From the NCBI GenBank assembly GCA_016840065.1, contig JAEOTB010000010.1:1-64000 (forward strand): a stretch of DNA of 64,000 nucleotides. The letters are read 5' to 3'. Origin of the DNA: Candidatus Hermodarchaeota archaeon (lineage in GTDB: Archaea > Asgardarchaeota > Hermodarchaeia > Hermodarchaeales > Hermodarchaeaceae). This document shows positions 41,791-54,771 of this stretch, in pieces (the stretch's first letter is position 1; the number at the start of each line of letters is the position of its first letter). The position numbers and the translations under genes are program-made. Under the pieces are notes generated by a model that worked only from the letters and a program-made list of their open reading frames with translations, was not told where the DNA came from and ran no database searches.

Positions 41791-42549
41791 ATGTCTACTC
41801 TTCGATGCCCTCAATGCCACCATAGAGTCCATCCACAGGATCCGACTTGTGGGTTCTGTGGCTTTAGGTTTAGATATGATCGGTTTGAGCGGGTTCTTCC
41901 CTTTATGCGGAGACCAGAACGTCGCTGGCAGGGACGGCTTTCACTAAGGCAACGTTTGTGGTCGACACTAACTGTTCCAAGCATCGCTTTCTGGGACATC
42001 GCCCGGGACCCTGACAGAGCCGGACCGTTTCTAATATTCCTTGGAAACATTCTCTCCATATCTCTCTTTTACCTCCTGATAATAATGAAGACCACTAGTA
42101 CTGCGAGTCTTCTCTATGGCTTTTTAGGGGTCTTCCTGATATATTCTCTTCTTCATCTGGTCTACAATCTACTCTTCTACGGTATAATACACATCATTAT
42201 CCGTCTTTCAGGAAGGAAGGGGCCGTTCGGGGACACATTCATCCTTGGTCAATACTCTGCATTGCCTCTGCTGCTCGCTAATCTACTATCACTAGTAGTT
42301 CTGGCAATGTTTCTACCTTCTGTTCCAGTTTCAGAATTAATGTTCATAGTCTATCCTTACCAGTCTATCTGGCTTGTTTTCTGGATTCTCACAGCCATAG
42401 CCTCACTGTGGGGAGCAGTTCTCCTGGCATTGGGAATTCGTGAGCGCTATCATATGTCAACCAGTTTAGCATTCATGGCTACATTCACGGTAACGGTGAT
42501 AGTTGTAATGCTAGGAATATTTGCCAGACTTTCATTGCCGATTATTTAA
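41791..42549 (+). CDS. Yip1-domain membrane protein with N-terminal Zn ribbon
   Basis: CPQC...CGFCG, then L..P...FW.I, about 5 TM helices, L.GRKG.F, YSALP, W...L...GI. Confidence 0.75.
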   Translation: MSTLRCPQCHHRVHPQDPTCGFCGFRFRYDRFERVLPFMRRPERRWQGRLSLRQRLWSTLTVPSIAFWDIARDPDRAGPFLIFLGNILSISLFYLLIIMKTTSTASLLYGFLGVFLIYSLLHLVYNLLFYGIIHIIIRLSGRKGPFGDTFILGQYSALPLLLANLLSLVVLAMFLPSVPVSELMFIVYPYQSIWLVFWILTAIASLWGAVLLALGIRERYHMSTSLAFMATFTVTVIVVMLGIFARLSLPII

Positions 42550-43573
42550 TGAGAACAAGAAGCTTTAGGGGTTGAGCGAGGCTCTTATCATTAATGAAAA
42601 TTGGCTCCTTCTTCTTCACGCGCATTCGCCCGAGAATCTGGTCGTCGGATAATATTCGTCCCCGGAACATAATCTTGGGGGCTAATAGCCCAAAGGTCAT
42701 GATGAGCCTGTTCTTCAACTCGGTTACGGATTCACCTCGACCAACCGTGAATATCTCACCTTTTATCCGGAACCGATCACTGCAAAGAAAACAATTTGGA
42801 TTCAAAGCTAACTTGAGAGTGGTGAATCTCTGGTAGAGGCCATCATAGAAAAGGAAATTATCAAGGGCTTTACCAATACCCAGCAAATGCTTAAGCGCTT
42901 CTTGAAACTGAATACCAGCGATGACAGTAGCCACACTCAATAACGCAGGAAACTTGGGAGGCGGCTCCTCAGTCTTACGACGCTGACCTGGTGGAGTGCA
43001 AGCCTTCTGTAAACGCTCTTGAGGGATGAGGGGCTGACATTCTAAGCAGGGAGTCTGAAACGGAATAACCCGTTGCACATTTCCCCACCACCCAAACATA
43101 CCTCCATGGATTAGTGGTTTCTTTTTTTGTACGCAGAGGGAGTTGAGCCAGCGGCGTGCTTCGAAGTTGTCAAGCCCATCTACAATGAGGTCTACTTCGT
43201 CCCAGATGGTGTGGGGGACCTGCTGGATGGCTCTGTTTAGTGAGAGGACTTGGACATCAGGGTTTGCTGCTCGGAGTCTTTGGCCTGCTATAACCGCCTT
43301 TGGTTCTCCAATATCTTGGTCAGTGTAAAGGAATTGTCGGCTCAGATTAGACATTTCAATTGTATCGTAGTCAACAACTACTACTTTTCCTATCCCTGTA
43401 AGAACAAGATCAAGTGCAGTTATGGTACCTAGTGCGCCAACACCAGCCACGAGCACAGAGGAACGTGCCAGTTTTTCCTGATCCCAACCATCCATCAAGA
43501 GTTGCCTTGCATATCGATCAAATGTATGATAGATAGGTGGGCGCTTTTCCTCTGGCTTTGCTTGTTCTACCAC
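42542..43573 (-). CDS. Ubiquitin-activating enzyme E1 (ThiF/UBA) with C-terminal ubiquitin-fold domain
   Basis: DRYARQ, VAGVGALG, DTIEMSNLSRQFL, DGLDNFEAR, PCLEC, KACT catalytic Cys, NCFLC; GTG 43573 follows GAGGT, just after the E2 stop. Confidence 0.92.
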   Translation of the reverse strand: MVEQAKPEEKRPPIYHTFDRYARQLLMDGWDQEKLARSSVLVAGVGALGTITALDLVLTGIGKVVVVDYDTIEMSNLSRQFLYTDQDIGEPKAVIAGQRLRAANPDVQVLSLNRAIQQVPHTIWDEVDLIVDGLDNFEARRWLNSLCVQKKKPLIHGGMFGWWGNVQRVIPFQTPCLECQPLIPQERLQKACTPPGQRRKTEEPPPKFPALLSVATVIAGIQFQEALKHLLGIGKALDNFLFYDGLYQRFTTLKLALNPNCFLCSDRFRIKGEIFTVGRGESVTELKNRLIMTFGLLAPKIMFRGRILSDDQILGRMRVKKKEPIFINDKSLAQPLKLLVLIK

Positions 43574-43575
43574 AG

Positions 43576-44037
43576 CTAAGACCTCTGTATTTGGTCCCAT
43601 CCAGCATGACGGCGTATCCATTCACGGACGGTTCGTTCAAACTGCGCTGGGTTCTGTTTGACTTGGCGTGCAGCACTCTGATTTAGCGGGTCATCGGGGT
43701 TAGGGAAGTTCAAGAGATTACGCAAGGTTTCAACGAGACCAGTTAGTGAAGTGCTAGGTAACCAATCCTTTCCTATAATCCCAACACACACTCGTCCCCT
43801 ATGAATGTTAGGGTGCCATATCTTGGTTACGAATCGAACCTTTGGCGGCTCATATGGGAACGCTCGAGGAACTATAATCTGAATTACAAAGACTCCTCCG
43901 TCGTAAACCCCAGTACCAAGGATGAAGCCCTGCCAGCGTCTAAGATCGCCATTGATTGGCTGGAATGAGGGCTCCTCAGTTTCCATGCTCTTCGCTTCTA
44001 GGGCAAGCCTTGCCCAAAAGTCCTCTTCTGATAGCAT
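43576..44037 (-). CDS. Ubiquitin-conjugating enzyme E2
   Basis: YDGGVF, FPYEPPKVRFVTKIWHPNI..GRVC (catalytic Cys), W.P, PNPDDPLN. Confidence 0.95.
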   Translation of the reverse strand: MLSEEDFWARLALEAKSMETEEPSFQPINGDLRRWQGFILGTGVYDGGVFVIQIIVPRAFPYEPPKVRFVTKIWHPNIHRGRVCVGIIGKDWLPSTSLTGLVETLRNLLNFPNPDDPLNQSAARQVKQNPAQFERTVREWIRRHAGWDQIQRS

Positions 44038-44233
44038 ATATGATACGCCTCGGTGGGAAAAACGTTCCCTGACTCAGAGATTTGTCATCTGCCTTGAATA
44101 TTTTTTCGGTATAAAAATATATATTTCGGACGAAATTGCCCTCGTCTATCATAAATTTAGCATAACTTCTCGATAGAGTTGCATAATAAAGGGAGGGAGT
44201 GGCGCCCGTGAGGTGCACCATTCCTAAAGAACC

Positions 44234-44470
44234 TCAGCCACCTTCAGTTCGAGTGATGAGGTACAAAACATCCGAGTGTGTTATTCCTTCTCCCTTTATG
44301 GTCTGTTCATCGTTCATCTGATGACCACGGTAGCTTAGAACGACGATGTTCGGAGGGATGCGTCGCATCTGAGCAACCTTCCGTCGGATTTCGCCGATCG
44401 TAGTGTTCGGTTCAACCTCTAGGAAGACTGAATCGCCACCACCGATTGCAGGTCGGATTTCAATACGCAT
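44234..44470 (-). CDS. Ubiquitin-like modifier (78 aa, C-terminal GG)
   Basis: LEVEPNTTIGEIRRKV, IPP, L.Y.G.QM.D..TI, ends RTEGG-stop; between E3 and E2. Confidence 0.95.
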   Translation of the reverse strand: MRIEIRPAIGGGDSVFLEVEPNTTIGEIRRKVAQMRRIPPNIVVLSYRGHQMNDEQTIKGEGITHSDVLYLITRTEGG

Positions 44471-44479
44471 TTTAACTAC

Positions 44480-44725
44480 TCACCTTTTGACGGGTTTCAA
44501 TTTTCTCAATGGGATGCGCGAACGACAAATCGGGCAGACTCCTTTGACCTTCACCCATTCAGCGAGGTGGCCGTAATGGGCGGGGTTTCCGCATTTCGGA
44601 CAGAACACTTTGGTCTGTCCTTCGCGAATCGGTAATCCACAGACGCTGCATTGTTGCTGAGGAGTGGTCCAATCCCACGTCCCAATTTCTTTGATACGTG
44701 TGATTACGAATCTATCCTCAGTCAT
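44480..44725 (-). CDS. Small RING-finger E3 ligase
   Basis: CSVC...CPKC...H..HLAEW...CPICR; 9 nt upstream of ubiquitin. Confidence 0.88.
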   Translation of the reverse strand: MTEDRFVITRIKEIGTWDWTTPQQQCSVCGLPIREGQTKVFCPKCGNPAHYGHLAEWVKVKGVCPICRSRIPLRKLKPVKR

Positions 44726-44889: not shown

Positions 44890-45417
44890 TTGTCAGAGGC
44901 ACCAAAGTTTAAAATTGAGATTGAAGCAATTAAGACACCCAAAGGATTAGTGCCTACTGTTGAATCTCTGAGGCGAATAGTCAAAGCGCTCAATGTACTT
45001 GACGCAGATTTTAATCGGATGAATCTTAAAATGGAGGCAAATATTCGTGCGCTCCTTCGGGAGGTAAAAACACTACAGAAGCTAGTGGCTGACGACACAA
45101 TAGCCTCCGAGTCATCTGTGGAGAGACTTGGCATCCTTGTTGAAAGAATGGATTCGCTAGAGAAGAACTTGAGAAAACGAAAGGCAGCACCTGCTGACGA
45201 CTCTACAGCCGCATCTTTGAAGGCACTAAAGCGGGAGATCACTCCTACTCTTACAAAGGCTGCTAAGCGTTTGGAGGAAACAATGGCGCTCTTTGAACGA
45301 CGTCTTGACGAGTTTCTCCGCGAACTTAAGAGTAGTATACTTCTTGCAGTTCGCCAAGCCACTTCTACATCTTCTTCTCCAAAGTCTACTTCAAGAAGGC
45401 GCTCTGGAAGGAGCTAA
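44890..45417 (+). CDS. Coiled-coil protein, first gene of the ESCRT-I/II operon
   Basis: 175 aa; beta-hairpin-like N-terminus, long heptad region, Ser/Arg tail. Confidence 0.7.
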   Translation: MSEAPKFKIEIEAIKTPKGLVPTVESLRRIVKALNVLDADFNRMNLKMEANIRALLREVKTLQKLVADDTIASESSVERLGILVERMDSLEKNLRKRKAAPADDSTAASLKALKREITPTLTKAAKRLEETMALFERRLDEFLRELKSSILLAVRQATSTSSSPKSTSRRRSGRS

Positions 45418-45491: not shown

Positions 45492-46259
45492 GTGAGTTTT
45501 ATGGCACAAGCAGTGCGAAGGAAAACAGAAATGGCGATTGCTCGCGAAGCCCAGTTGATGTTCCGCAGGGCCCCAACATTCGCTCCTGTAGGCAACAATC
45601 TGCGTCGATGGCGCGGAAAAATTAAGGGTGGTCCACGTGGTAGAAAGGAATTCCTCGTTGAAATCATTGTGCCACCCAACTTCCCGGCTCAGCCGCCAGT
45701 TGCTCGCATGTTGACGCCAACGAAACATCCTCGAGTAGATAGTGAATCTGGTGCTATTCATTTACGAATCGTAACTCAATGGCAGCCTCATTATCACATC
45801 TACCAAGTTGTAAACAGTATCAAGGGCCTCTTTGCTAGAGAACCTCCAAAAGTGGATGAAACCCAAGAACCTCCAGAGGTTGAGATGCCTGAAAGCGAAG
45901 AACTTCTGCAACGACGGTATCAAAGACTGGAACGAGAAGTCTCTCAACTCACTAGGAAGATTCAGGAACGTGATGAGCAGATTGCTCGGTTGTCTGCTCA
46001 AAGAGACACACATCGAATTCCAGTGAGTGAAGCATCAGGTGAAGAAGAAATCGATGCACTAATCCTACCAAGTGATCCAATGGAACGTCAAAAACTTGAG
46101 CTAGAGAGTGAAAGGCTAGCCATTGAAGATTTGCTACAAAACTTAGAGGAGAAGTTTGAAAACGCTGAAATTACAGCCACAGAGTATACCAAGCTCTACA
46201 AGCGGTACAAGCGTCGTCTCTACCAAATCGAGAAAGCTCTTCAGGAGCTAGGTAAATAG
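45492..46259 (+). CDS. vps23: ESCRT-I Vps23/TSG101 homologue (UEV-coiled coil-steadiness box)
   Basis: E2-like fold FPAQPP..HPRVD..GAIHL with His at the catalytic Cys position; coiled coil; AIEDLL..LEEKFENAEIT..EY.K.Y steadiness box. Confidence 0.9.
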   Translation: MSFMAQAVRRKTEMAIAREAQLMFRRAPTFAPVGNNLRRWRGKIKGGPRGRKEFLVEIIVPPNFPAQPPVARMLTPTKHPRVDSESGAIHLRIVTQWQPHYHIYQVVNSIKGLFAREPPKVDETQEPPEVEMPESEELLQRRYQRLEREVSQLTRKIQERDEQIARLSAQRDTHRIPVSEASGEEEIDALILPSDPMERQKLELESERLAIEDLLQNLEEKFENAEITATEYTKLYKRYKRRLYQIEKALQELGK

Positions 46260-46282: not shown

Positions 46283-46924
46283 ATGGCTGTACGAGAACGG
46301 CGGCGCGAGCGAAGGCGGGTCCAAGAACTAAAAGCAGATTTGTACGGGAGCATTGCAACCCTCGATAGCATCGTGAGGAAGTTCGAAGAGGGTGATCTGA
46401 ACCCCACACTCTACAAGCGTCAACTCCGCTCTTTGGTTCGAGACACAATAACAGCACGGCAGCTGCTTGAGGCAGAGGGCTCCAGTTGGGAAGAGTTTCT
46501 ACTCGAGGAACACATTACGGAAAGATTTCCCGAAGCCTCTGGAAAACTTCAGATTGCAGAACAGGCTCCTCAAGGAGAAACGCCTGAAGAATTTACGGGT
46601 CAAACTTCTGCCAAAATGGCAGCAAAAGCAGCGGACATTGTCTCTGACATAATAACCCTAATTGATATCGCCAAGCTTGGTGATGTCGCTAGGATGGATC
46701 TAATAGTTCCCTTACTTGATGATGCGATTATTCTACTCACGAAATACCCGAATTTTCCTCCTGATTACTGGATTCTCGTTGCAATAAAAGAGTGGAGGGA
46801 TAGGCTTCAACAGCGAGACCCGCGTGACAAACTCTCACCTGAAGAGGCGAAACATCTAGAATTCCAGTCGATACGCTGGTTGAATGATTTCAAAAGACGT
46901 CTCCGGGAGATGGCTACCGAGTAA
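46283..46924 (+). CDS. vps28: ESCRT-I Vps28
   Basis: RERRR...ADLYGSIATLD, Y...L..L, FPEA...L, C-terminal four-helix bundle IITLID.AKL...L.PLL...W...L..EE. Confidence 0.9.
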   Translation: MAVRERRRERRRVQELKADLYGSIATLDSIVRKFEEGDLNPTLYKRQLRSLVRDTITARQLLEAEGSSWEEFLLEEHITERFPEASGKLQIAEQAPQGETPEEFTGQTSAKMAAKAADIVSDIITLIDIAKLGDVARMDLIVPLLDDAIILLTKYPNFPPDYWILVAIKEWRDRLQQRDPRDKLSPEEAKHLEFQSIRWLNDFKRRLREMATE

Positions 46925-46945
46925 TCATGTCGAGGCCGATAGTTG

Positions 46946-47239
46946 ATGAAGGGTTCGGCGTGGTCATATGCAGAGATGCGGGAGCGGCTGGTGAACGTTA
47001 TAAACAAAGCCAACCTACAAATCAATGCCGAGTATGTCCTTGAGGACCTCGATGTCGTTGTTGCCTTCGCTCAAGCGATGCTAGGTGAAAATCACCACAT
47101 TACAAACGAGGCACAAGAATGGTATGCGTATTTCTGGGATAAGTATCGATACAACCTAGAACAACATGTAGAGGAAAATGAGGCGCGGCGTTTTGCAATG
47201 TGCGCAGAGATGTGGCTGAATCATATTCGTCGAATTTAG
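46946..47239 (+). CDS. Stand-alone Vps28 C-terminal-domain-like protein
   Basis: Colinear similarity to the CTD of the adjacent Vps28 (I..A.L, LD, EW, EA......WLN..RR). Confidence 0.65.
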   Translation: MKGSAWSYAEMRERLVNVINKANLQINAEYVLEDLDVVVAFAQAMLGENHHITNEAQEWYAYFWDKYRYNLEQHVEENEARRFAMCAEMWLNHIRRI

Positions 47240-47251
47240 GAGGAATTAGGT

Positions 47252-47989
47252 GTGTGTGGGCTTCATGAAATAGAAAAACGGGTGGAGATGGATGCCGCTT
47301 ACCGGCGGAAACGTGCAAAGCTTATGCTCAAAGAACTGGAACATATGCTCCAAACCGTAGCAGAACTCGGTAGCCAAGCAGAAAACTTCGAAAAATCTTA
47401 CGGAGAAATCCTGGAAGATATGCCAGAACTTGGCGAAAAGGTTGCAGCAATTGCCCGGGAACTTGGGATAGCTCTACCTAGTGTTTCTACACCCACTGAA
47501 GTTGAAGATAAGCCAGGGCTGTTTGAGCGCATCACAGGACGTGGGCGTTTTTACGAACAGCTAGGATTACAGATACTTGATTTAGCTAAAAGGCGGAGGA
47601 GCGAAACAGGCGGAATTATGACTCTGGCTGAAGTCGTAATTCTAGTGAATAAACGTCGCCGTCACAACGTTTCACAAGTTGATGTAGCACGTGCTATCCA
47701 CCATCTTACCAGTGCTAAACTGATTCCTGGGCTTCACAAACTCAAGTCCGGTATAAAAATCGTCGAGTTTGTACCCCGTGAATTTACTGAAGACCAAGTC
47801 ATCGTGCTTTCCCTTGCCAGCCGAACTGGCTTTACAACACTTGAAGATGTTATGACTCAAACCCGATGGAACAGAGAACGTGCACTCGCAGCACTTCAAA
47901 GCCTCAAAGAATCTGGCGCTGCGAAACTTGACGAATCATATGCTCATGGAACGCGGTACTTCTTCCCTGGGCTAACTCCTTCGGCATAA
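47252..47989 (+). CDS. vps22: ESCRT-II Vps22/Vps36 (EAP30) homologue
   Basis: GL..I N-terminal helix, FYEQLGLQI, TGGIM.L, VS..DV.RAI, VP.EF..DQ..VL, W..ERA...L..L...G...LD, YFFP. Confidence 0.9.
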   Translation: MCGLHEIEKRVEMDAAYRRKRAKLMLKELEHMLQTVAELGSQAENFEKSYGEILEDMPELGEKVAAIARELGIALPSVSTPTEVEDKPGLFERITGRGRFYEQLGLQILDLAKRRRSETGGIMTLAEVVILVNKRRRHNVSQVDVARAIHHLTSAKLIPGLHKLKSGIKIVEFVPREFTEDQVIVLSLASRTGFTTLEDVMTQTRWNRERALAALQSLKESGAAKLDESYAHGTRYFFPGLTPSA

Positions 47990-48038: not shown

Positions 48039-48776
48039 CTAAATTTTTATTTCGAGAACTTCCTGTTCCTTGTCTAGCCAGCGGGCCCTCTTCTGTTTCA
48101 CAAGAATGTCAAGGATTTCGCGTAGTTCAGACTTTGGAAGGCTTTCTAGATCATCACGGTGCTCTTTTAGCTTGAATAACGTAAATGTTGTACGTCCAGT
48201 CTCTAATGCCCAACGGTGAATCTCGTCTGCCCACTCCTCGTCTGTCTTCCAGAAAACACGGATTATTCCCTCCGCTTCATCAATCCAGCGACCTAATTCC
48301 TGTTTCACAAGACTCCCAAGTATGAATCTGACGGCACGCTGACGGTCAGAACGAATATCATTGAAGGGGCTAAGCATTACTAGCCTACGAGTGGAGACAA
48401 TATGTAGGAGGACTTCCCTGCAGAAATCAAGTGTGAATCCTGCCCATTCAGCGCTCCACTGTTCAATGTCTCCTTCTGAACTGGGAATCGCGAACATGAA
48501 AGCATAGCGACCTCGCTTTGCAATCCAGACATATCTTGATTTGAGTTGTTTTACTGCTAGTCTCGCAAGCTCCTCAACACTTCTCTCTTCTTCCTCTTCA
48601 ACAGGGAGTACAAGAACCGCAGCCTCTTCCTCTGGTTCATCCTCTTCTTCAGTTGAACGGCTAGTCTCTTGTTCTGCCTTTTCAAGGACCTGGATGTACT
48701 CCTCCTCGCTGAGGTGTACTGGTTTGGGTTTATCCTCCTTCTCCCTTGAACGCCTTCTTGGCTTCTCCTTGACCAA
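48039..48776 (-). CDS. vps25: ESCRT-II Vps25 homologue with acidic N-terminal extension
   Basis: W...W....LDFC, PF, IL..LV..G.W, VFWKT.EEWA..I..WA..G....TLF.L, LVKQ.RA tandem winged helix. Confidence 0.85.
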   Translation of the reverse strand: MVKEKPRRRSREKEDKPKPVHLSEEEYIQVLEKAEQETSRSTEEEDEPEEEAAVLVLPVEEEEERSVEELARLAVKQLKSRYVWIAKRGRYAFMFAIPSSEGDIEQWSAEWAGFTLDFCREVLLHIVSTRRLVMLSPFNDIRSDRQRAVRFILGSLVKQELGRWIDEAEGIIRVFWKTDEEWADEIHRWALETGRTTFTLFKLKEHRDDLESLPKSELREILDILVKQKRARWLDKEQEVLEIKI

Positions 48777-48790
48777 TATTCATCCCCTTT

Positions 48791-49954
48791 CTATGAGCCG
48801 TGCTTCTCTTCCCATTCTTTATACTTCTGTAATTCTTCCGGTGTTATTGTAGTATGAATGTGGCTCAAACTCTCAACAAAATCCTTCTGAGTGACAGGTC
48901 TAACTGGTTTCTCCTTATCTCGGATGTCTCCTGTGAGATCCAGTTCACGAATCGGTTCAAGAGAAGCCTCCCGGCAAATATGGGCAATATCTGAACCGGC
49001 ATAACCCTCAGTCATATTTCCTAACTGTTCAAAATCCACATCACTATCTAACTCGATGCCCCTCGTGTGTATCTCAAAAATCCGTACACGAGCATCTTGC
49101 TCGGGTGTGGGAACATAAATACGCCGCTCAAAACGACGACGAAAAGCAGGATCGATATCCCAGGGCCGGTTTGTTGCGCCTAATACAACTACTCTGTCTC
49201 CCTTCCGGCTCTTCATACCATCAATTTCAACAAGGAATTGAGTCTTCAGACGCCGCTCTCCACCCACTTGATCACTACCCCGCTCAGCTGTTAAAGCATC
49301 AACTTCATCTAGAAAAACAATAGATGGCTGAGAATTCCTTGCAGCAGTAAAAAGCTGCTTAACCAGCCTTTCCGATTCTCCCAACCACTTAGAAACAAGC
49401 GACCCGGCGTCCGCGTTGAAGAAGGTGGCCTCTGTTTCATTAGCTACGGCTTTAGCAATCAAGGTTTTTCCGCAGCCTGGAGGTCCGAAGAGCAATACTC
49501 CTCTCCAAGGTCGGCGCGCTCCAGTGAATAAATCCGGACGGAGGATTGGTAGAATAATGGCTTCGCGTAAAGCTTGCTTTGCTTCTTCTAGATTCGCCAC
49601 ATCATCCCATTTCACACTGGGTTTCTCTCGAACAACCAAGCTCGCAATATCATCCTGCAACTCCGAATCTGGACCCTCAACCTCTGTATCCCCAATATCG
49701 GGGCCAGAACCCCCTACTCTAACACGCCCACTCCTTAGTAATTTCGCCCGGGCAATATACTGCTCTGCCCTCTCCAAGGCAATAATACGCATCTTAGGCA
49801 TCCTAGAAATCCTTGCTGCCTTGGCAAGAATATCAGCAGCTTCGATGTAAATGGAAGCAGCCTCTGATCGCTTCCCCGCTCTATCGTATTCAGCTGCCTT
49901 CCCCGCTTTTTCTTCAGCGATTCTCATAAGGTATTGTGCACTGCTCAACTCCAA
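48791..49954 (-). CDS. vps4: Vps4 MIT-AAA+ ATPase
   Basis: N-terminal MIT helices, KPSVKWDDVANLE.AK.ALREA, GPPGCGKT, SKWLGESE pore loop, FLDEVD, ATNRPW, RRRFERR; start TTG 49954 or 49948. Confidence 0.96.
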   Translation of the reverse strand: MELSSAQYLMRIAEEKAGKAAEYDRAGKRSEAASIYIEAADILAKAARISRMPKMRIIALERAEQYIARAKLLRSGRVRVGGSGPDIGDTEVEGPDSELQDDIASLVVREKPSVKWDDVANLEEAKQALREAIILPILRPDLFTGARRPWRGVLLFGPPGCGKTLIAKAVANETEATFFNADAGSLVSKWLGESERLVKQLFTAARNSQPSIVFLDEVDALTAERGSDQVGGERRLKTQFLVEIDGMKSRKGDRVVVLGATNRPWDIDPAFRRRFERRIYVPTPEQDARVRIFEIHTRGIELDSDVDFEQLGNMTEGYAGSDIAHICREASLEPIRELDLTGDIRDKEKPVRPVTQKDFVESLSHIHTTITPEELQKYKEWEEKHGS

Positions 49955-50025: not shown

Positions 50026-50187
50026 ATAGAGTCTATGCGGAACGTAAGGGAGTAGAACCTCTCGTGCGTGTTACACGTCCCAGCAATGACAGCCATTTAC
50101 AAAGACTTAATTTGTTGTATTCTAATTAACTTATGTCGAAAAGATAATAAGCCTCTCTTTAGCTGGAGGAAACTGGAAGCTAATAAA

Positions 50188-50799
50188 ATGTCAGCAATAA
50201 GACGATTTAAGCAATGGCTCGGAGGCAAGCCTTCACTCAAACAACTTATCTTTAGACTTGATGTTTTCTGTCGGAAATTAGATTTGCAGCGGAAGATGTT
50301 AGAGAAGGAGGCTAGTAAGAGTCGTCAGAAGGCGAAGAGGTATCGGCTTCAGGGTAACATGGATGCTGTTCGTCTTTATCTACAGCATCATTTGCGTTTT
50401 CAGAAATGGGCTCTTTCTGTTGACGCATATCGCTTACGTATTGAAGGGTTACAAACCCAGTTACGACAGAGCGAGGCAATGGGAGACCTTGCGAAGATTC
50501 TTGGCCAGCTAAACGCTGCTTTGGGTGGATTGAAAACCCAGGTCAAGGTGCCCGAAGTTGCCCAATTGGTGGATCAGATTGAAGGGAACCTTCGACACTT
50601 TGAAATGACCCAAGAGATTGCTGATACGGGTATGGAACGTATGTCGGTTTCAACTGAAGTTACTGATGGTGAAGTTAGCCAGGCATTAACTGATCTTGAC
50701 CAAGAAATCGAAGTAGAAACTGGTACAGCACTTCCACAGCCAGAACAGCGAGTTTCACAATTAGAAGAAGAGATTAGGAGACTAAAGGAGGAAAGCTAG
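50188..50799 (+). CDS. ESCRT-III, Vps2/24/46 class (ESCRT-IIIA)
   Basis: Amphipathic N-terminus IRRFKQWLGG, basic hairpin with GN..A.R.Y, acidic half, C-terminal LEEEIRRLK; ATG 50188 preferred over 50068. Confidence 0.88.
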   Translation: MSAIRRFKQWLGGKPSLKQLIFRLDVFCRKLDLQRKMLEKEASKSRQKAKRYRLQGNMDAVRLYLQHHLRFQKWALSVDAYRLRIEGLQTQLRQSEAMGDLAKILGQLNAALGGLKTQVKVPEVAQLVDQIEGNLRHFEMTQEIADTGMERMSVSTEVTDGEVSQALTDLDQEIEVETGTALPQPEQRVSQLEEEIRRLKEES

Positions 50800-51456
50800 A
50801 TGGCAAAAGGAAGATTTAGCTCTCTCTGGGAGAGACTTTTCCCAAGGAAGCCTGAGCCAAAGGAAGACACTGTAGCTCGTATTCATCGTGTCGTCGATTT
50901 ACTTGAGGTTCGCGGTCGGCAATACGAGACAAAAGCAAAGGATTCTCGGGTCAAGGCGATTCGTTATGTGAAACGCGGAGACCGGAAAGCGGCAAAGCTT
51001 CAGCTTAGGAGGCGTTCAAGATACCTCCGAAAAGCTAGACTGGTTGAACAAGAAATCGACCTAATGGAGCGAGGAGTCGAAGCAATCGAGCAAGCCAAAG
51101 GCGAAGCAGAAGTCATGGGAGCGCTTCGCGGTATCGGAGCCACCCTCGAACAGCTACGTGAAACTGCGTCACCTGAATCTGCCCGGGAAACCATCCTAGA
51201 AACCCAAGCACTGATTGAGGAAGCAGAGTCAACAGAAGAAATTCTTGGTCTTGGCTTAGACGACGAAGAGTTGGATGCAGATGTCGAAGCAGAGCTGGAA
51301 GACATCGAGACATTAGTCGCTCTTGAAGAAGCAGGACAACTACCTACAGTTCCTGTAGGCGAGTCAGAGACTACAACAGGAGAACTAACGTCAGAGGAAC
51401 GACGTGAGCGTACCCGCAAAGAACTTGATCGCCTTAGGAAGGAATTAGAAGAATAA
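50800..51456 (+). CDS. ESCRT-III, Snf7/Vps20/32/60 class (ESCRT-IIIB)
   Basis: LWERLFP N-terminal helix, GDRKAAKLQLRRR..Y, DDEELDADVEAEL, LPTVP, ELDRLRKEL. Confidence 0.9.
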   Translation: MAKGRFSSLWERLFPRKPEPKEDTVARIHRVVDLLEVRGRQYETKAKDSRVKAIRYVKRGDRKAAKLQLRRRSRYLRKARLVEQEIDLMERGVEAIEQAKGEAEVMGALRGIGATLEQLRETASPESARETILETQALIEEAESTEEILGLGLDDEELDADVEAELEDIETLVALEEAGQLPTVPVGESETTTGELTSEERRERTRKELDRLRKELEE

Positions 51457-51503: not shown

Positions 51504-53000
51504 TTAAAGGAAGGATTCATCAGTTACAGAGTGTTCTCCAGTGGCTTCACTTATTCTAGTTTCAACAAGATAAAGCTCCCGGCTCAATGAACGATATTGC
51601 TTGAAGAAACTTTCGTTAGAGATTTTTCCTTCATCGAATTGCCGCTTCAATAACTTCAACGTAGCTTGGAGGCTATACTTCTGTTGCCGTAACTGAAAGA
51701 TATGGTCGTGGGTGAGCGGACCCACCTTGCTTCTAGAAGGGGGGTAGAGTGTAGGTGTATGGCTTTGCGGTGAAGTAGGATGAGGGCGCCGAATCGAGGG
51801 AACTGAGGGGAGATCATTGGTAACTGCCTGATCTATTAGTTTATCTAGCGCATTGCGTAGCGCCATAATATCCACTTTCAGTTCTGTCACTCGTATAGAT
51901 CCCTTTATAGTAACAAGACTGTGTTCGCTGAAATTCTGGGCTAAAGTAATGGTCTTTGAAATCTCCTGGAGTGTTTCAGAAGACCCCCGAAGCCTTAATT
52001 CCTCATCATCAGTAATGACAATAAGTCTTCGGCGGAGGCGCCCCTCCTCTCTTATACCAGTAATCGCTGGCAGAGGTAGAGAACGAATCACAGATGTGTC
52101 ACGCTTAATCAAACCGGTTTGACCTAGAAACAGGAGTCGTCGGGTTGTCACGAAAAGAGTGCCTTGGCTCATCCTTTTTCCTGTCTCTGTTTTACCCAGA
52201 CTGATAGAGGGAATTGCAGCAACAGCCTTTTCCTCTTCACCGATGTCAAGGTGATCAGAGTATTTAGTAAATATCGTGTGCCAGCGCTGCAGAGGTTGTA
52301 GGTCTTGTTCGATTGTCTCTAACACATCTTTTAATTCCTTAACTAGCTCTATGCAATACGTTTCGTAATCGTCGATGTCCTCTTGGATGCCCTCTATTAG
52401 TCCTGCTAGAAGTGGAAAATCTGAAACCTGCCATTTTTCTGGATGGATGAATCTTGCTTTGCTTGCTCTGTGTCGTTCAACTATCTTTTGAGCTCGAAAT
52501 AATATTCGTTCATTTACTGCTGGAATAGCTTTCGTGATAAGTTCCAGTAAATTCTTCTCTATCTCAGGATTGTGGAGAAAACCGCCTGTACGAAGCTCTC
52601 TAATCTGCCACCGTACTGTTCTCAAGCGGGTAGCAAACCCTGTTAGTAATTCATGTCCCACTCGAAGCTCATAGTAAGCTGTGCGAAATCGGCTAACTAG
52701 GTTCTGCCGCATGTTGTGTATTGGTGTCACGTTGTCTGAATTGCAGTTAACACATAGGTTCTCACGGCGGGTTGCAAGTTGTGCTGGCTCTCCGCATTCT
52801 CTGCAAACTGTCCCCTCATCAGTTTGCTCAATGGCACTAGGACCACACCGACTACAGGTATCGAATTCACTTACTTTGTGTCGAGAACATTTAACGCAGA
52901 AAACATAACCACAATCCATGCAGCACCGCTCAACTACACGGATGCGGCACACGGGACACAACGAATTGTTACTTTGTGGTCCTTGTTTTGGTAGGGACAT
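51504..53000 (-). CDS. Multidomain FYVE-like Zn finger / coiled coil / PH(GRAM-GLUE-like) / Pro-rich / steadiness-box protein
   Basis: Six CxxC pairs including CMDCGYVFCVKCS; GTLFVTTRRLLF; PHPTSP; SLQATLKLLKRQFDEGKISNESFFKQYRSLSRELY. Confidence 0.75.
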   Translation of the reverse strand: MSLPKQGPQSNNSLCPVCRIRVVERCCMDCGYVFCVKCSRHKVSEFDTCSRCGPSAIEQTDEGTVCRECGEPAQLATRRENLCVNCNSDNVTPIHNMRQNLVSRFRTAYYELRVGHELLTGFATRLRTVRWQIRELRTGGFLHNPEIEKNLLELITKAIPAVNERILFRAQKIVERHRASKARFIHPEKWQVSDFPLLAGLIEGIQEDIDDYETYCIELVKELKDVLETIEQDLQPLQRWHTIFTKYSDHLDIGEEEKAVAAIPSISLGKTETGKRMSQGTLFVTTRRLLFLGQTGLIKRDTSVIRSLPLPAITGIREEGRLRRRLIVITDDEELRLRGSSETLQEISKTITLAQNFSEHSLVTIKGSIRVTELKVDIMALRNALDKLIDQAVTNDLPSVPSIRRPHPTSPQSHTPTLYPPSRSKVGPLTHDHIFQLRQQKYSLQATLKLLKRQFDEGKISNESFFKQYRSLSRELYLVETRISEATGEHSVTDESFL

Positions 53001-53070: not shown

Positions 53071-53820
53071 TCAGGTCTCGGGGCGACGAGAAGAAGATTG
53101 AGGGCGCCTAATAAGGAAGCTCTCTAACCCGCGGGGAGATGGAAAATCAATTAATAAAATCCTCTTGCGAAGAGGTAAAGCTACATTGAAGATAGGTGTT
53201 GTTCCCACTAGACCTTGTTTTAACCCTTGGTGAGCGTGACCATGAACAGCCAAGGTTGGATTGTGCTTCTTGAGTAGTGCTTCAACGCGGCGGGACCCCA
53301 TCTGGGGAAGTGCACGTCTCATTTCACCACTGAGAGTCTTGAAAGATGGAGAATAATGCGAGAGAAGAATAGTGTGTTCAGCTTCGGAACTTGCTTTAGC
53401 GAGGAGTGTATCCAATGTTTTTACACGTCTAGTGTAACGATTACGGATTCCTTTCACATATCTAGACTGCCAGAAGGTCGGCTGATCAAGAACACCTCTC
53501 GTGCCCACAATCGCTACCCGCTCCGCGTTTAATGAGGTGATTCTCATCTCGTCATCTAGAAAGGTGATGACATCTTTAGTTCTCCTCCGTAATTCATCTT
53601 TTATTGTATCGTACTCGTCATTACCAAAAACTGCAAATATTGGGCAGTTTAGCTCTGCCAGAAGTTCTGTTAAAGGGTTTATGGCATCGACGTTACCACG
53701 ATTTACCAAATCGCCTGCCAGTAATAACAATGATGGACTACTAGATAGTTGGTTCAGGGACTTAACAAAGGATTCCCTGAATCGGGGCCAGTGTATGTCG
53801 CTTGTTGCGGCGAGATGCAA
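53071..53820 (-). CDS. Calcineurin-like metallophosphoesterase (Icc-related)
   Basis: SDIH, AGDL, FGNDE, SHY, HGHAH. Confidence 0.9.
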   Translation of the reverse strand: MHLAATSDIHWPRFRESFVKSLNQLSSSPSLLLLAGDLVNRGNVDAINPLTELLAELNCPIFAVFGNDEYDTIKDELRRRTKDVITFLDDEMRITSLNAERVAIVGTRGVLDQPTFWQSRYVKGIRNRYTRRVKTLDTLLAKASSEAEHTILLSHYSPSFKTLSGEMRRALPQMGSRRVEALLKKHNPTLAVHGHAHQGLKQGLVGTTPIFNVALPLRKRILLIDFPSPRGLESFLIRRPQSSSRRPET

Positions 53821-53844
53821 GTGTTTTTCCTCTTTAATTAAGTG

Positions 53845-54771
53845 TTAAAGGGCAGCAAAGATGAAATTTATTAGACCTAGGAAAGCACCGAGTTTATCAG
53901 CTAGGCTAGCGCGGGAGGCATTTTTCCTCGGATTTCGCAAGATTAGGATGGCAGAGGCAGCAACACAAATGGTTCCTGGGACGAGTAGAATTATGTAAAG
54001 GGGACCGGTCCAAGGTAAACCAAACCACGTCCACCCAACCCAATTCACGAGATATGGCAATAGGAAGCCTGAAACACCAATTACATTGAATACAGCAGCA
54101 ATTCTTGCAGCTGTACGTACCCCATATTTCCGCGCAAGAGTTTGTACATCGCGTAGCTCATCACCCTCAATGTCTTCTATCCCCTTTATCGCTTCTCGAC
54201 CTTGAAGGACACTGGCAGCAGTAATGAAGTAAATCCAAATGACTGGAGGTATTAAAGGAGAAGTGATAAGTGCGCCATAGAATAAGCCAAAGGCGAAGCT
54301 AACAGAAACAGCGAAATTACCCAAGAGACCCATTACCTTTCCCTTTGCGGCATAGAGTAGGCCAACAAGGCAGAAGAGGGCGGCAATTGCTAATGTCCAA
54401 ACCTCAACAGCGGACAGAGATATTGTAAAGAAGGAAAAAAGAAGACCAAAGAAGACAAGAATAACTGTCCATACTTTGGCTTGCCGAATCGACATTTCCC
54501 CACTTGGGAGTGGGCGGGTGGGTCGGTTTACCTTGTCAATTTCAAGATCGTAAATGTCGTTTACGACATTCCCTGCAGCGGCAATGCACAGATAGGTTAT
54601 CGAGGCTAGAAGTAAAATCCACCCTAATGGTGTTGTAAATAAGTGGGTCAGGTCAAAATAACCGGTGCCAGTTGTAAATCTGTAGCTTGTCAGAACTCCA
54701 ATTATAACGGTAAGGGCTCCGACGAAAGTGTTTCCTGGACGTGTGATGGTGATGAATGCCTTCAGAGACAT
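53845..54771 (-). CDS. UbiA prenyltransferase, probable digeranylgeranylglyceryl-phosphate synthase
   Basis: TRPGN, NDIYDLEIDKVNRPTRPLPSG, GN..V, REAIKGIEDIEGD, multiple TM helices. Confidence 0.85.
   Translation of the reverse strand: MSLKAFITITRPGNTFVGALTVIIGVLTSYRFTTGTGYFDLTHLFTTPLGWILLLASITYLCIAAAGNVVNDIYDLEIDKVNRPTRPLPSGEMSIRQAKVWTVILVFFGLLFSFFTISLSAVEVWTLAIAALFCLVGLLYAAKGKVMGLLGNFAVSVSFAFGLFYGALITSPLIPPVIWIYFITAASVLQGREAIKGIEDIEGDELRDVQTLARKYGVRTAARIAAVFNVIGVSGFLLPYLVNWVGWTWFGLPWTGPLYIILLVPGTICVAASAILILRNPRKNASRASLADKLGAFLGLINFIFAAL

Follow-up and report, generated by a model that had tools for sequence, protein, structure and literature searches.

Here, we assign the protein encoded at 51504..53000 (-) of the window, the 64,000-nucleotide stretch of DNA analysed, to the Asgard-wide Znr_CC_PH_SB family, as its member from a Hermodarchaeia Asgard archaeon (genome 84% complete), a placement that we regard as practically certain. 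From its domains, distribution and gene linkage we further propose, with modest confidence, that it acts as an adaptor through which the Asgard ESCRT machine is anchored at the membrane. The family, Znr_CC_PH_SB (also Znr_PH_CC_SB; cog.011556), was described by Makarova et al. (mBio 2024, PMC10936438) as three zinc ribbons, a coiled coil, a PH domain and a steadiness box. These authors considered it a likely ESCRT-I component that is probably ancestral in Asgard, expected its PH domain at the membrane by analogy with Vps36, and presented a Lokiarchaeum example two genes away from a Vps20-family ESCRT-III gene. The same cog.011556 was used as a steadiness-box family by Lu et al. (10.1101/2023.07.25.550441). 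The original prediction had introduced the window protein as a candidate missing ESCRT adaptor, a description that has to be given up because both the family and its ESCRT-I/membrane hypothesis have been in print since 2024.

Membership was judged from architecture, range and neighbourhood rather than from the asCOG profile itself. The window protein has six CxxC pairs, long helices, a PH domain and a steadiness box, together with an Asgard range and an ESCRT neighbourhood. It thus shares with the published family the three zinc sites, the helical region, the PH domain and the C-terminal steadiness box, as well as the adjacency to Vps20-family ESCRT-III genes, and we found no difference of kind. 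Our results refine the published description in that the "three ribbons" resolve into one cross-brace finger and one inserted, dispensable ribbon, and in that the window copy has a short linker (about 35 aa). We add that searches of Odin-like genomes did not find the family. Close homologues of the window protein are 48-77% identical to it, and those that are named belong to Hermodarchaeota.

Domain architecture of the window protein

The predicted 498-aa open frame is present at 53000-51504 (-), and every feature listed for it was recovered at its residues:

51504..53000 (-), Znr_CC_PH_SB gene (Asgard cog.011556 family), 498 aa; from the ORF, homologues and family description
52743..52958 (-), zinc domain, residues 15-86, a B-box-like two-zinc cross-brace finger (C15/18, C27/30, C35/38, C83/86)
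52794..52856 (-), inserted zinc ribbon (C49/52, C66/69) capping a long beta-hairpin (model strands 40-49 and 74-82)
52248..52721 (-), long helical region, residues 94-251, three long helices (DSSP of the model), no specific family
51921..52244 (-), PH domain of the GLUE/GRAM/bacterial-PH group, residues about 253-360; from fold and profile
51714..51806 (-), disordered, variable linker, residues 399-429 (pLDDT under 50)
51768..51779 (-), non-conserved PTSP in the linker
51540..51713 (-), steadiness box, a Vps23-type helical hairpin, residues 430-487 (Pfam Vps23_core 26.8 bits, at the cut-off)

The six CxxC pairs, with a zinc ribbon inserted into a cross-brace core, are as predicted. The inserted ribbon is absent from five homologues of family f21, possibly Hodarchaeales, which retain the core cysteines. 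These divergent insert-less members (L136-L139, L141) stem from genomes of 2.4-5.9 Mb, and one cluster member is labelled Heimdallarchaeota. The core had been read as a FYVE-like finger of the kind found in Vps27. Its eight ligands do have the cross-brace two-zinc spacing that FYVE requires, and to this extent the reading stands; this spacing, however, is not diagnostic because it is common to B-box, PHD and RING-like folds. Among 46 members, the Pfam zf-B_box profile matched 39 (best 1.4e-6) and FYVE 17 (best 2.3e-4), the insert-less forms gave no FYVE profile match, and none of the 161 homologues carries the PI3P-binding motifs WxxD, HHC or R[RK]HHC. Vps27/Hrs and the window protein thus share the CxxC-x4-CxxC cross-brace spacing, whereas the FYVE lipid motifs, a conserved PSAP-type motif, VHS and UIM were not found in the latter. 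TRIM-type proteins offer another likeness, with a B-box-like finger followed immediately by long helices.

Searches of the helical region against Pfam and the PDB returned generic coiled-coil matches only and gave no consistent match to BAR or spectrin. Rejected were RhoGEF (DH-PH) proteins, the top whole-chain Foldseek matches, which are PH-driven (TM about 0.2, rmsd about 20 A). A PH domain of the GLUE/GRAM/bacterial-PH group was confirmed by fold and profile searches, in which GRAM and bacterial PH profiles score as well as or better than GLUE. It is basic in 46 of 53 members, with four conserved K/R positions (R288, R300, R324 and R325); the net charge of only +2 in the window copy counts against the adaptor model, as does the failure to find a PI3/PI4 kinase in this 84% complete genome, where an inositol-phosphate synthase gave a weak match only. 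The Znr_CC_PH_SB gene is the sole match to the family PH profile in the genome. In the GLUE domain of Vps36/EAP45 (PF11605; PDB 2CAY, 2HTH, 2DX5) a zinc insert splits the PH fold, whereas in the window protein the zinc domain precedes it and is not of NZF type. The tandem winged helices of Vps36 (EAP30) are absent as well, and within the family only the f20 relatives have them. As a lead only, the ESM Atlas contains Chloroflexota proteins with helices and a GRAM/Vps36-type PH domain that resemble residues 83-358 (TM 0.64, normalised by the shorter protein).

Across the family the linker ranges in length from about 25 to more than 350 residues. Its PTSP had been proposed as a ligand of the UEV domain, which conservation argues against: the motif was seen in a single homologue of 145, and the other 26 aligned Hermod sequences lack it; P[ST]AP occurs in 3/145, and P[ST]xP is about as frequent as expected by chance (22/145 observed, 18.8 expected from shuffles). 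A PTAP-type ligand was thereby rejected, and the PTSP is best read as a chance occurrence. The dipeptide Y-P is common in Hermod linkers; a conserved YPxL motif was not found. With neither a FYVE motif nor a conserved PTSP, and with B-box the more frequent match, the proposed Vps27/ESCRT-0 part of the protein falls.

The C-terminal hairpin, by contrast, is the predicted Vps23-type steadiness box. The best PDB sequence match of the window protein is the yeast Vps23 hairpin, and a 45-member family profile retrieves yeast Vps23 (E 5e-10) and TSG101 (E 3e-3). Vps23_core matched 34 of the 45 members, CdvA two and SHOCT, the alternative named at the outset, one. The hairpin is detectable in 145/161 homologues; its degenerate or undetected state in some Heimdall-side families counts against the adaptor model. 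Like Vps37 of the eukaryotic ESCRT-I headpiece, the protein has a C-terminal steadiness-box-type hairpin that could take the third place. It differs from Vps37 in that its hairpin matches Vps23/TSG101, in that no stalk helix directly precedes the hairpin, and in its additional zinc and PH domains; Mod_r was not among 13 Pfam families, nor a Vps37 chain among the PDB matches to E 1. Complex prediction with the C-terminal part of Vps23, the N-terminal part of Vps28 and the steadiness box, each given an alignment, scored 0.00 in two runs in which the controls did not fold, and thus bears on their assembly in neither direction. A second clear steadiness box in the genome (G000) ends a 366-aa protein with a helical-repeat-like N-terminal part (C84:14735-15832, +), and weaker hairpin candidates lie at C88:348-1241, C85:51478-52347 and C10:26420-27358. 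There are hence several candidates for the third headpiece place, if it exists.

Gene linkage and distribution in Asgard archaea

The Znr_CC_PH_SB gene forms the end of a contiguous ubiquitin-ESCRT cluster that occupies a single 10.5-kb stretch inside the window:

42542..44725 (-), RING E3, ubiquitin, E2 and E1 genes (Pfam)
45492..46259 (+), UEV-Vps23 with steadiness box (Pfam UQ_con/UEV and Vps23_core)
46283..46924 (+), Vps28 with N-terminal hairpin (Pfam VPS28)
47252..47989 (+), Vps22/36-type subunit, closer to Snf8/Vps22
48039..48776 (-), Vps25 (Pfam ESCRT-II)
48791..49954 (-), Vps4 (MIT, AAA and Vps4_C)
50068..50799 (+), second ESCRT-III gene, of the other class (Pfam Snf7, tree)
50800..51456 (+), ESCRT-III gene with an LPTVP MIM2-like motif (Pfam Snf7)

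The last of these lies tail-to-tail with the Znr_CC_PH_SB gene, 47 bases from stop to stop. The Vps22/36-type subunit has no GLUE domain, as had been noted. Several smaller genes accompany the cluster. A 98-aa ORF between Vps28 and Vps22 (46943-47239, +) keeps its position in several families, and one of its homologues also matches the Vps28 profile; it would fit the stand-alone Vps28 C-terminal domain of Makarova et al. (PMC10936438). A 175-aa helical ORF 5' of Vps23 (44890-45417, +), conserved in Odin-like and f21 loci, is, judged by position only, probably asCOG005522 of Lu et al. (2023). Flanking E1 is a membrane protein with a Yip1 domain and a zinc ribbon at its N-terminus (41791-42549, +), which Odin-like and f21 clusters also contain. 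Upstream of the Znr_CC_PH_SB gene and on the same strand, a metallophosphoesterase and a UbiA-family prenyltransferase (53071-54771, -), the latter possibly with a role in archaeal lipid synthesis, form a pair that also lies upstream in Hermod loci and in family f20.

The neighbourhood sample comprised 67 loci from 20 families, in which kin are not independent. In 58/67 loci, covering 16/20 families, an ESCRT gene is no more than 2.5 kb away, so the homologues are linked to ESCRT loci, as the original prediction demanded. Much of this adjacency may be inherited gene order. The link nevertheless survives rearrangement: in f21 the gene stands between Vps28 and Vps22 inside the ubiquitin-ESCRT cluster, in f24 it lies upstream of Vps23, in f8 it adjoins Vps25, and in f4 it is found upstream of ESCRT-III. 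ESCRT-III is the commonest neighbour and an ESCRT-I gene lies within 2.5 kb in only 6/67 loci, which counts against the adaptor model.

With a wide profile, 259 of 301 Asgard genomes proved to carry the family, almost always in a single copy. The gene does not track UEV-Vps23. It is kept in 73/76 f6 and 64/68 f9 genomes (presumably Thorarchaeia and Lokiarchaeia, respectively), where the window UEV-Vps23 as query found no match at 1e-20. These lineages still have a hairpin partner, because free-standing or Vps22-fused hairpins occur there (PMC9192718; fetched loci). In f6 (L043-L077), Vps22 begins with a Vps28-like hairpin, and just one ESCRT-III gene separates Vps4 from the Znr_CC_PH_SB gene.

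By contrast, no family member was found in four tubulin-bearing f2 genomes with Vps23, presumably Odinarchaeia (1.3-1.4 Mb, 93-98% complete, one a single contig of 1,418,269 bases). Two Odin-like loci (L117, L118) have the window gene order from E1 to the ESCRT-III pair but lack Znr_CC_PH_SB and the 98-aa ORF, and unrelated genes fill the slot after ESCRT-III. A hidden copy was rejected, as the weak hairpin matches are P-loop ATPase-like or unrelated ORFs without zinc or PH parts; the terminal hairpins of the P-loop ATPase ORFs (L142:1851-3308, L143:1910-3223) give weak matches to the steadiness-box profile. The Odinarchaeum Vps23:Vps28 complex, the only measured Asgard ESCRT-I stoichiometry that we found, is 2:1 and assembled without Znr_CC_PH_SB (PMC9192718), a result that counts against the adaptor model. 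Since Odin-like genomes yielded no family member, this stoichiometry cannot speak for lineages that have the gene.

In family f20 the zinc-helix-PH core continues into ESCRT-II winged helices (Pfam EAP30) in place of the hairpin, a Vps36-like architecture. The gene was found in 3/3 genomes beside a separate Vps22 (L078:9016-10839, L121:13392-15203, L080:1641-3446; P0084, P0174, P0175); two copies are complete and show the fusion, one is cut at a contig end, and three database clusters confirm the fusion. Full-length Vps36 was not found in Asgard by Hatano et al. The PH domain of one copy matches Pfam Vps36 (E 1.8e-4), and Snf8/Vps22 scores better than Vps36 on the winged helices. Recent duplication of the genomes' own Vps22 is not supported as the source: in the tree, the fused winged helices group neither inside the supported clade of f20 Vps22 nor as sister to the genomes' own copy. 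The core tree lacks resolution at depth, and we propose no sequence of events from it. A tubulin-like protein is also encoded in the one f20 genome that was checked for it. The fusion ties the zinc-helix-PH core to ESCRT-I/II function, and a core that may be attached either to an ESCRT-I plug or to an ESCRT-II core fits a role as membrane anchor.

Proposed membrane anchoring and alternative readings

In the adaptor model, the basic GLUE/GRAM-type PH domain would bind anionic archaeal lipids, while the steadiness box on its floppy linker would pack with the Vps28 N-terminus, with Vps23 where present, or with a free-standing or Vps22-fused hairpin. This packing would tether the ESCRT-I/II platform to the membrane as the site of ESCRT-III nucleation, in an order of events that we propose. 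The B-box-like zinc domain and the helical region may serve protein contacts or self-association. The protein would thereby take over the membrane-targeting task of the eukaryotic Vps36 GLUE domain, with neither a FYVE lipid site nor a PTAP-type UEV ligand. Presence of the gene where UEV-Vps23 is unmatched, ESCRT-III as its usual neighbour and the other hairpin proteins in the genome argue against an obligate ESCRT-I role. A literature search for experiments on the family found none, which we also count against the model.

Because the adjacency to ESCRT-III is strong, the main rival is an ESCRT-III recruiter like crenarchaeal CdvA or Bro1/ALIX, which would be membrane-bound, self-associate through its hairpin and helices, and nucleate Vps20-class ESCRT-III without ESCRT-I. 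We consider this possible but not likely. The gene lies tail-to-tail with ESCRT-III in 49/67 loci, mostly with the class of the copy adjacent in the window (50800..51456), and in the fetched loci of the Loki-like f9 ESCRT-III was the only ESCRT gene detected. The f6 and f9 genomes that lack a UEV-Vps23 match point the same way, as does the resemblance of the steadiness box to the CdvA hairpin (PMC10936438). Convergent genes, however, are not co-transcribed, and their order may come from one ancestral cluster. Moreover, the neighbour in f6 is the other ESCRT-III class, the f21 gene lies between Vps28 and Vps22, and, for the hairpin, matches to Vps23 greatly outnumber those to CdvA.

The full model of the original prediction, an obligate third headpiece subunit in the role of Vps37 that also binds phosphoinositides by a FYVE-like finger and docks on UEV by its PTSP, is improbable. 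Its FYVE and PTSP parts are refuted by the motif counts given above, and a family that is common where UEV-Vps23 was not found, in genomes with other hairpin proteins available, hardly suits an obligate subunit. What speaks for it is the true steadiness box, the FYVE-compatible cysteine spacing, especially of the insert-less f21 form, and the failure to find the family in Odin-like genomes, where a Vps23 dimer fills the third place.

Still less probable is a RING-like ubiquitin ligase or ubiquitin-binding zinc protein that acts on ESCRT cargo. Although RING domains are among the best sequence and fold neighbours of the zinc domain and the cluster includes a complete ubiquitin system, the C3HC4/C3H2C3 spacing is not found (CxxC-x4-CxxC leaves four residues between ligands 4 and 5, and there is no histidine), the cluster already has its own RING E3, and the gene is kept in f6, the presumed Thorarchaeia, which are reported to lack ubiquitin (PMC9192718). 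A generic bacterial-type PH and SHOCT protein beside ESCRT genes by chance is very unlikely and largely refuted by the linkage and profile results, including the several gene orders, the f20 fusion to ESCRT-II and the single SHOCT match, even though the PH domain closely resembles bacterial PH families and bacterial PH-SHOCT and Chloroflexota helix-PH proteins are among the structural look-alikes.

It is tempting to extend the adaptor model to a scenario that we offer tentatively and would not ourselves expect to hold in full. Most Asgard archaea might possess a three-gene ESCRT-I in which Znr_CC_PH_SB supplies the third hairpin and a GLUE-type anchor; the Odinarchaeum Vps23 homodimer would then be derived by loss, and the GLUE domain of Vps36 would descend from the family PH domain through an f20-like swap of hairpin for winged helices.

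As the family and the hypothesis have been published, the value of the present analysis lies in a sharper test and not in a new discovery. The 10.5-kb ubiquitin-ESCRT set together with Znr_CC_PH_SB is a convenient system for reconstitution. Asgard ESCRT has been described as having neither Vps37 nor Vps36, and so no known ESCRT-I/II membrane anchor (PMC9192718); the nearly universal single-copy Znr_CC_PH_SB gene is the strongest candidate for it.
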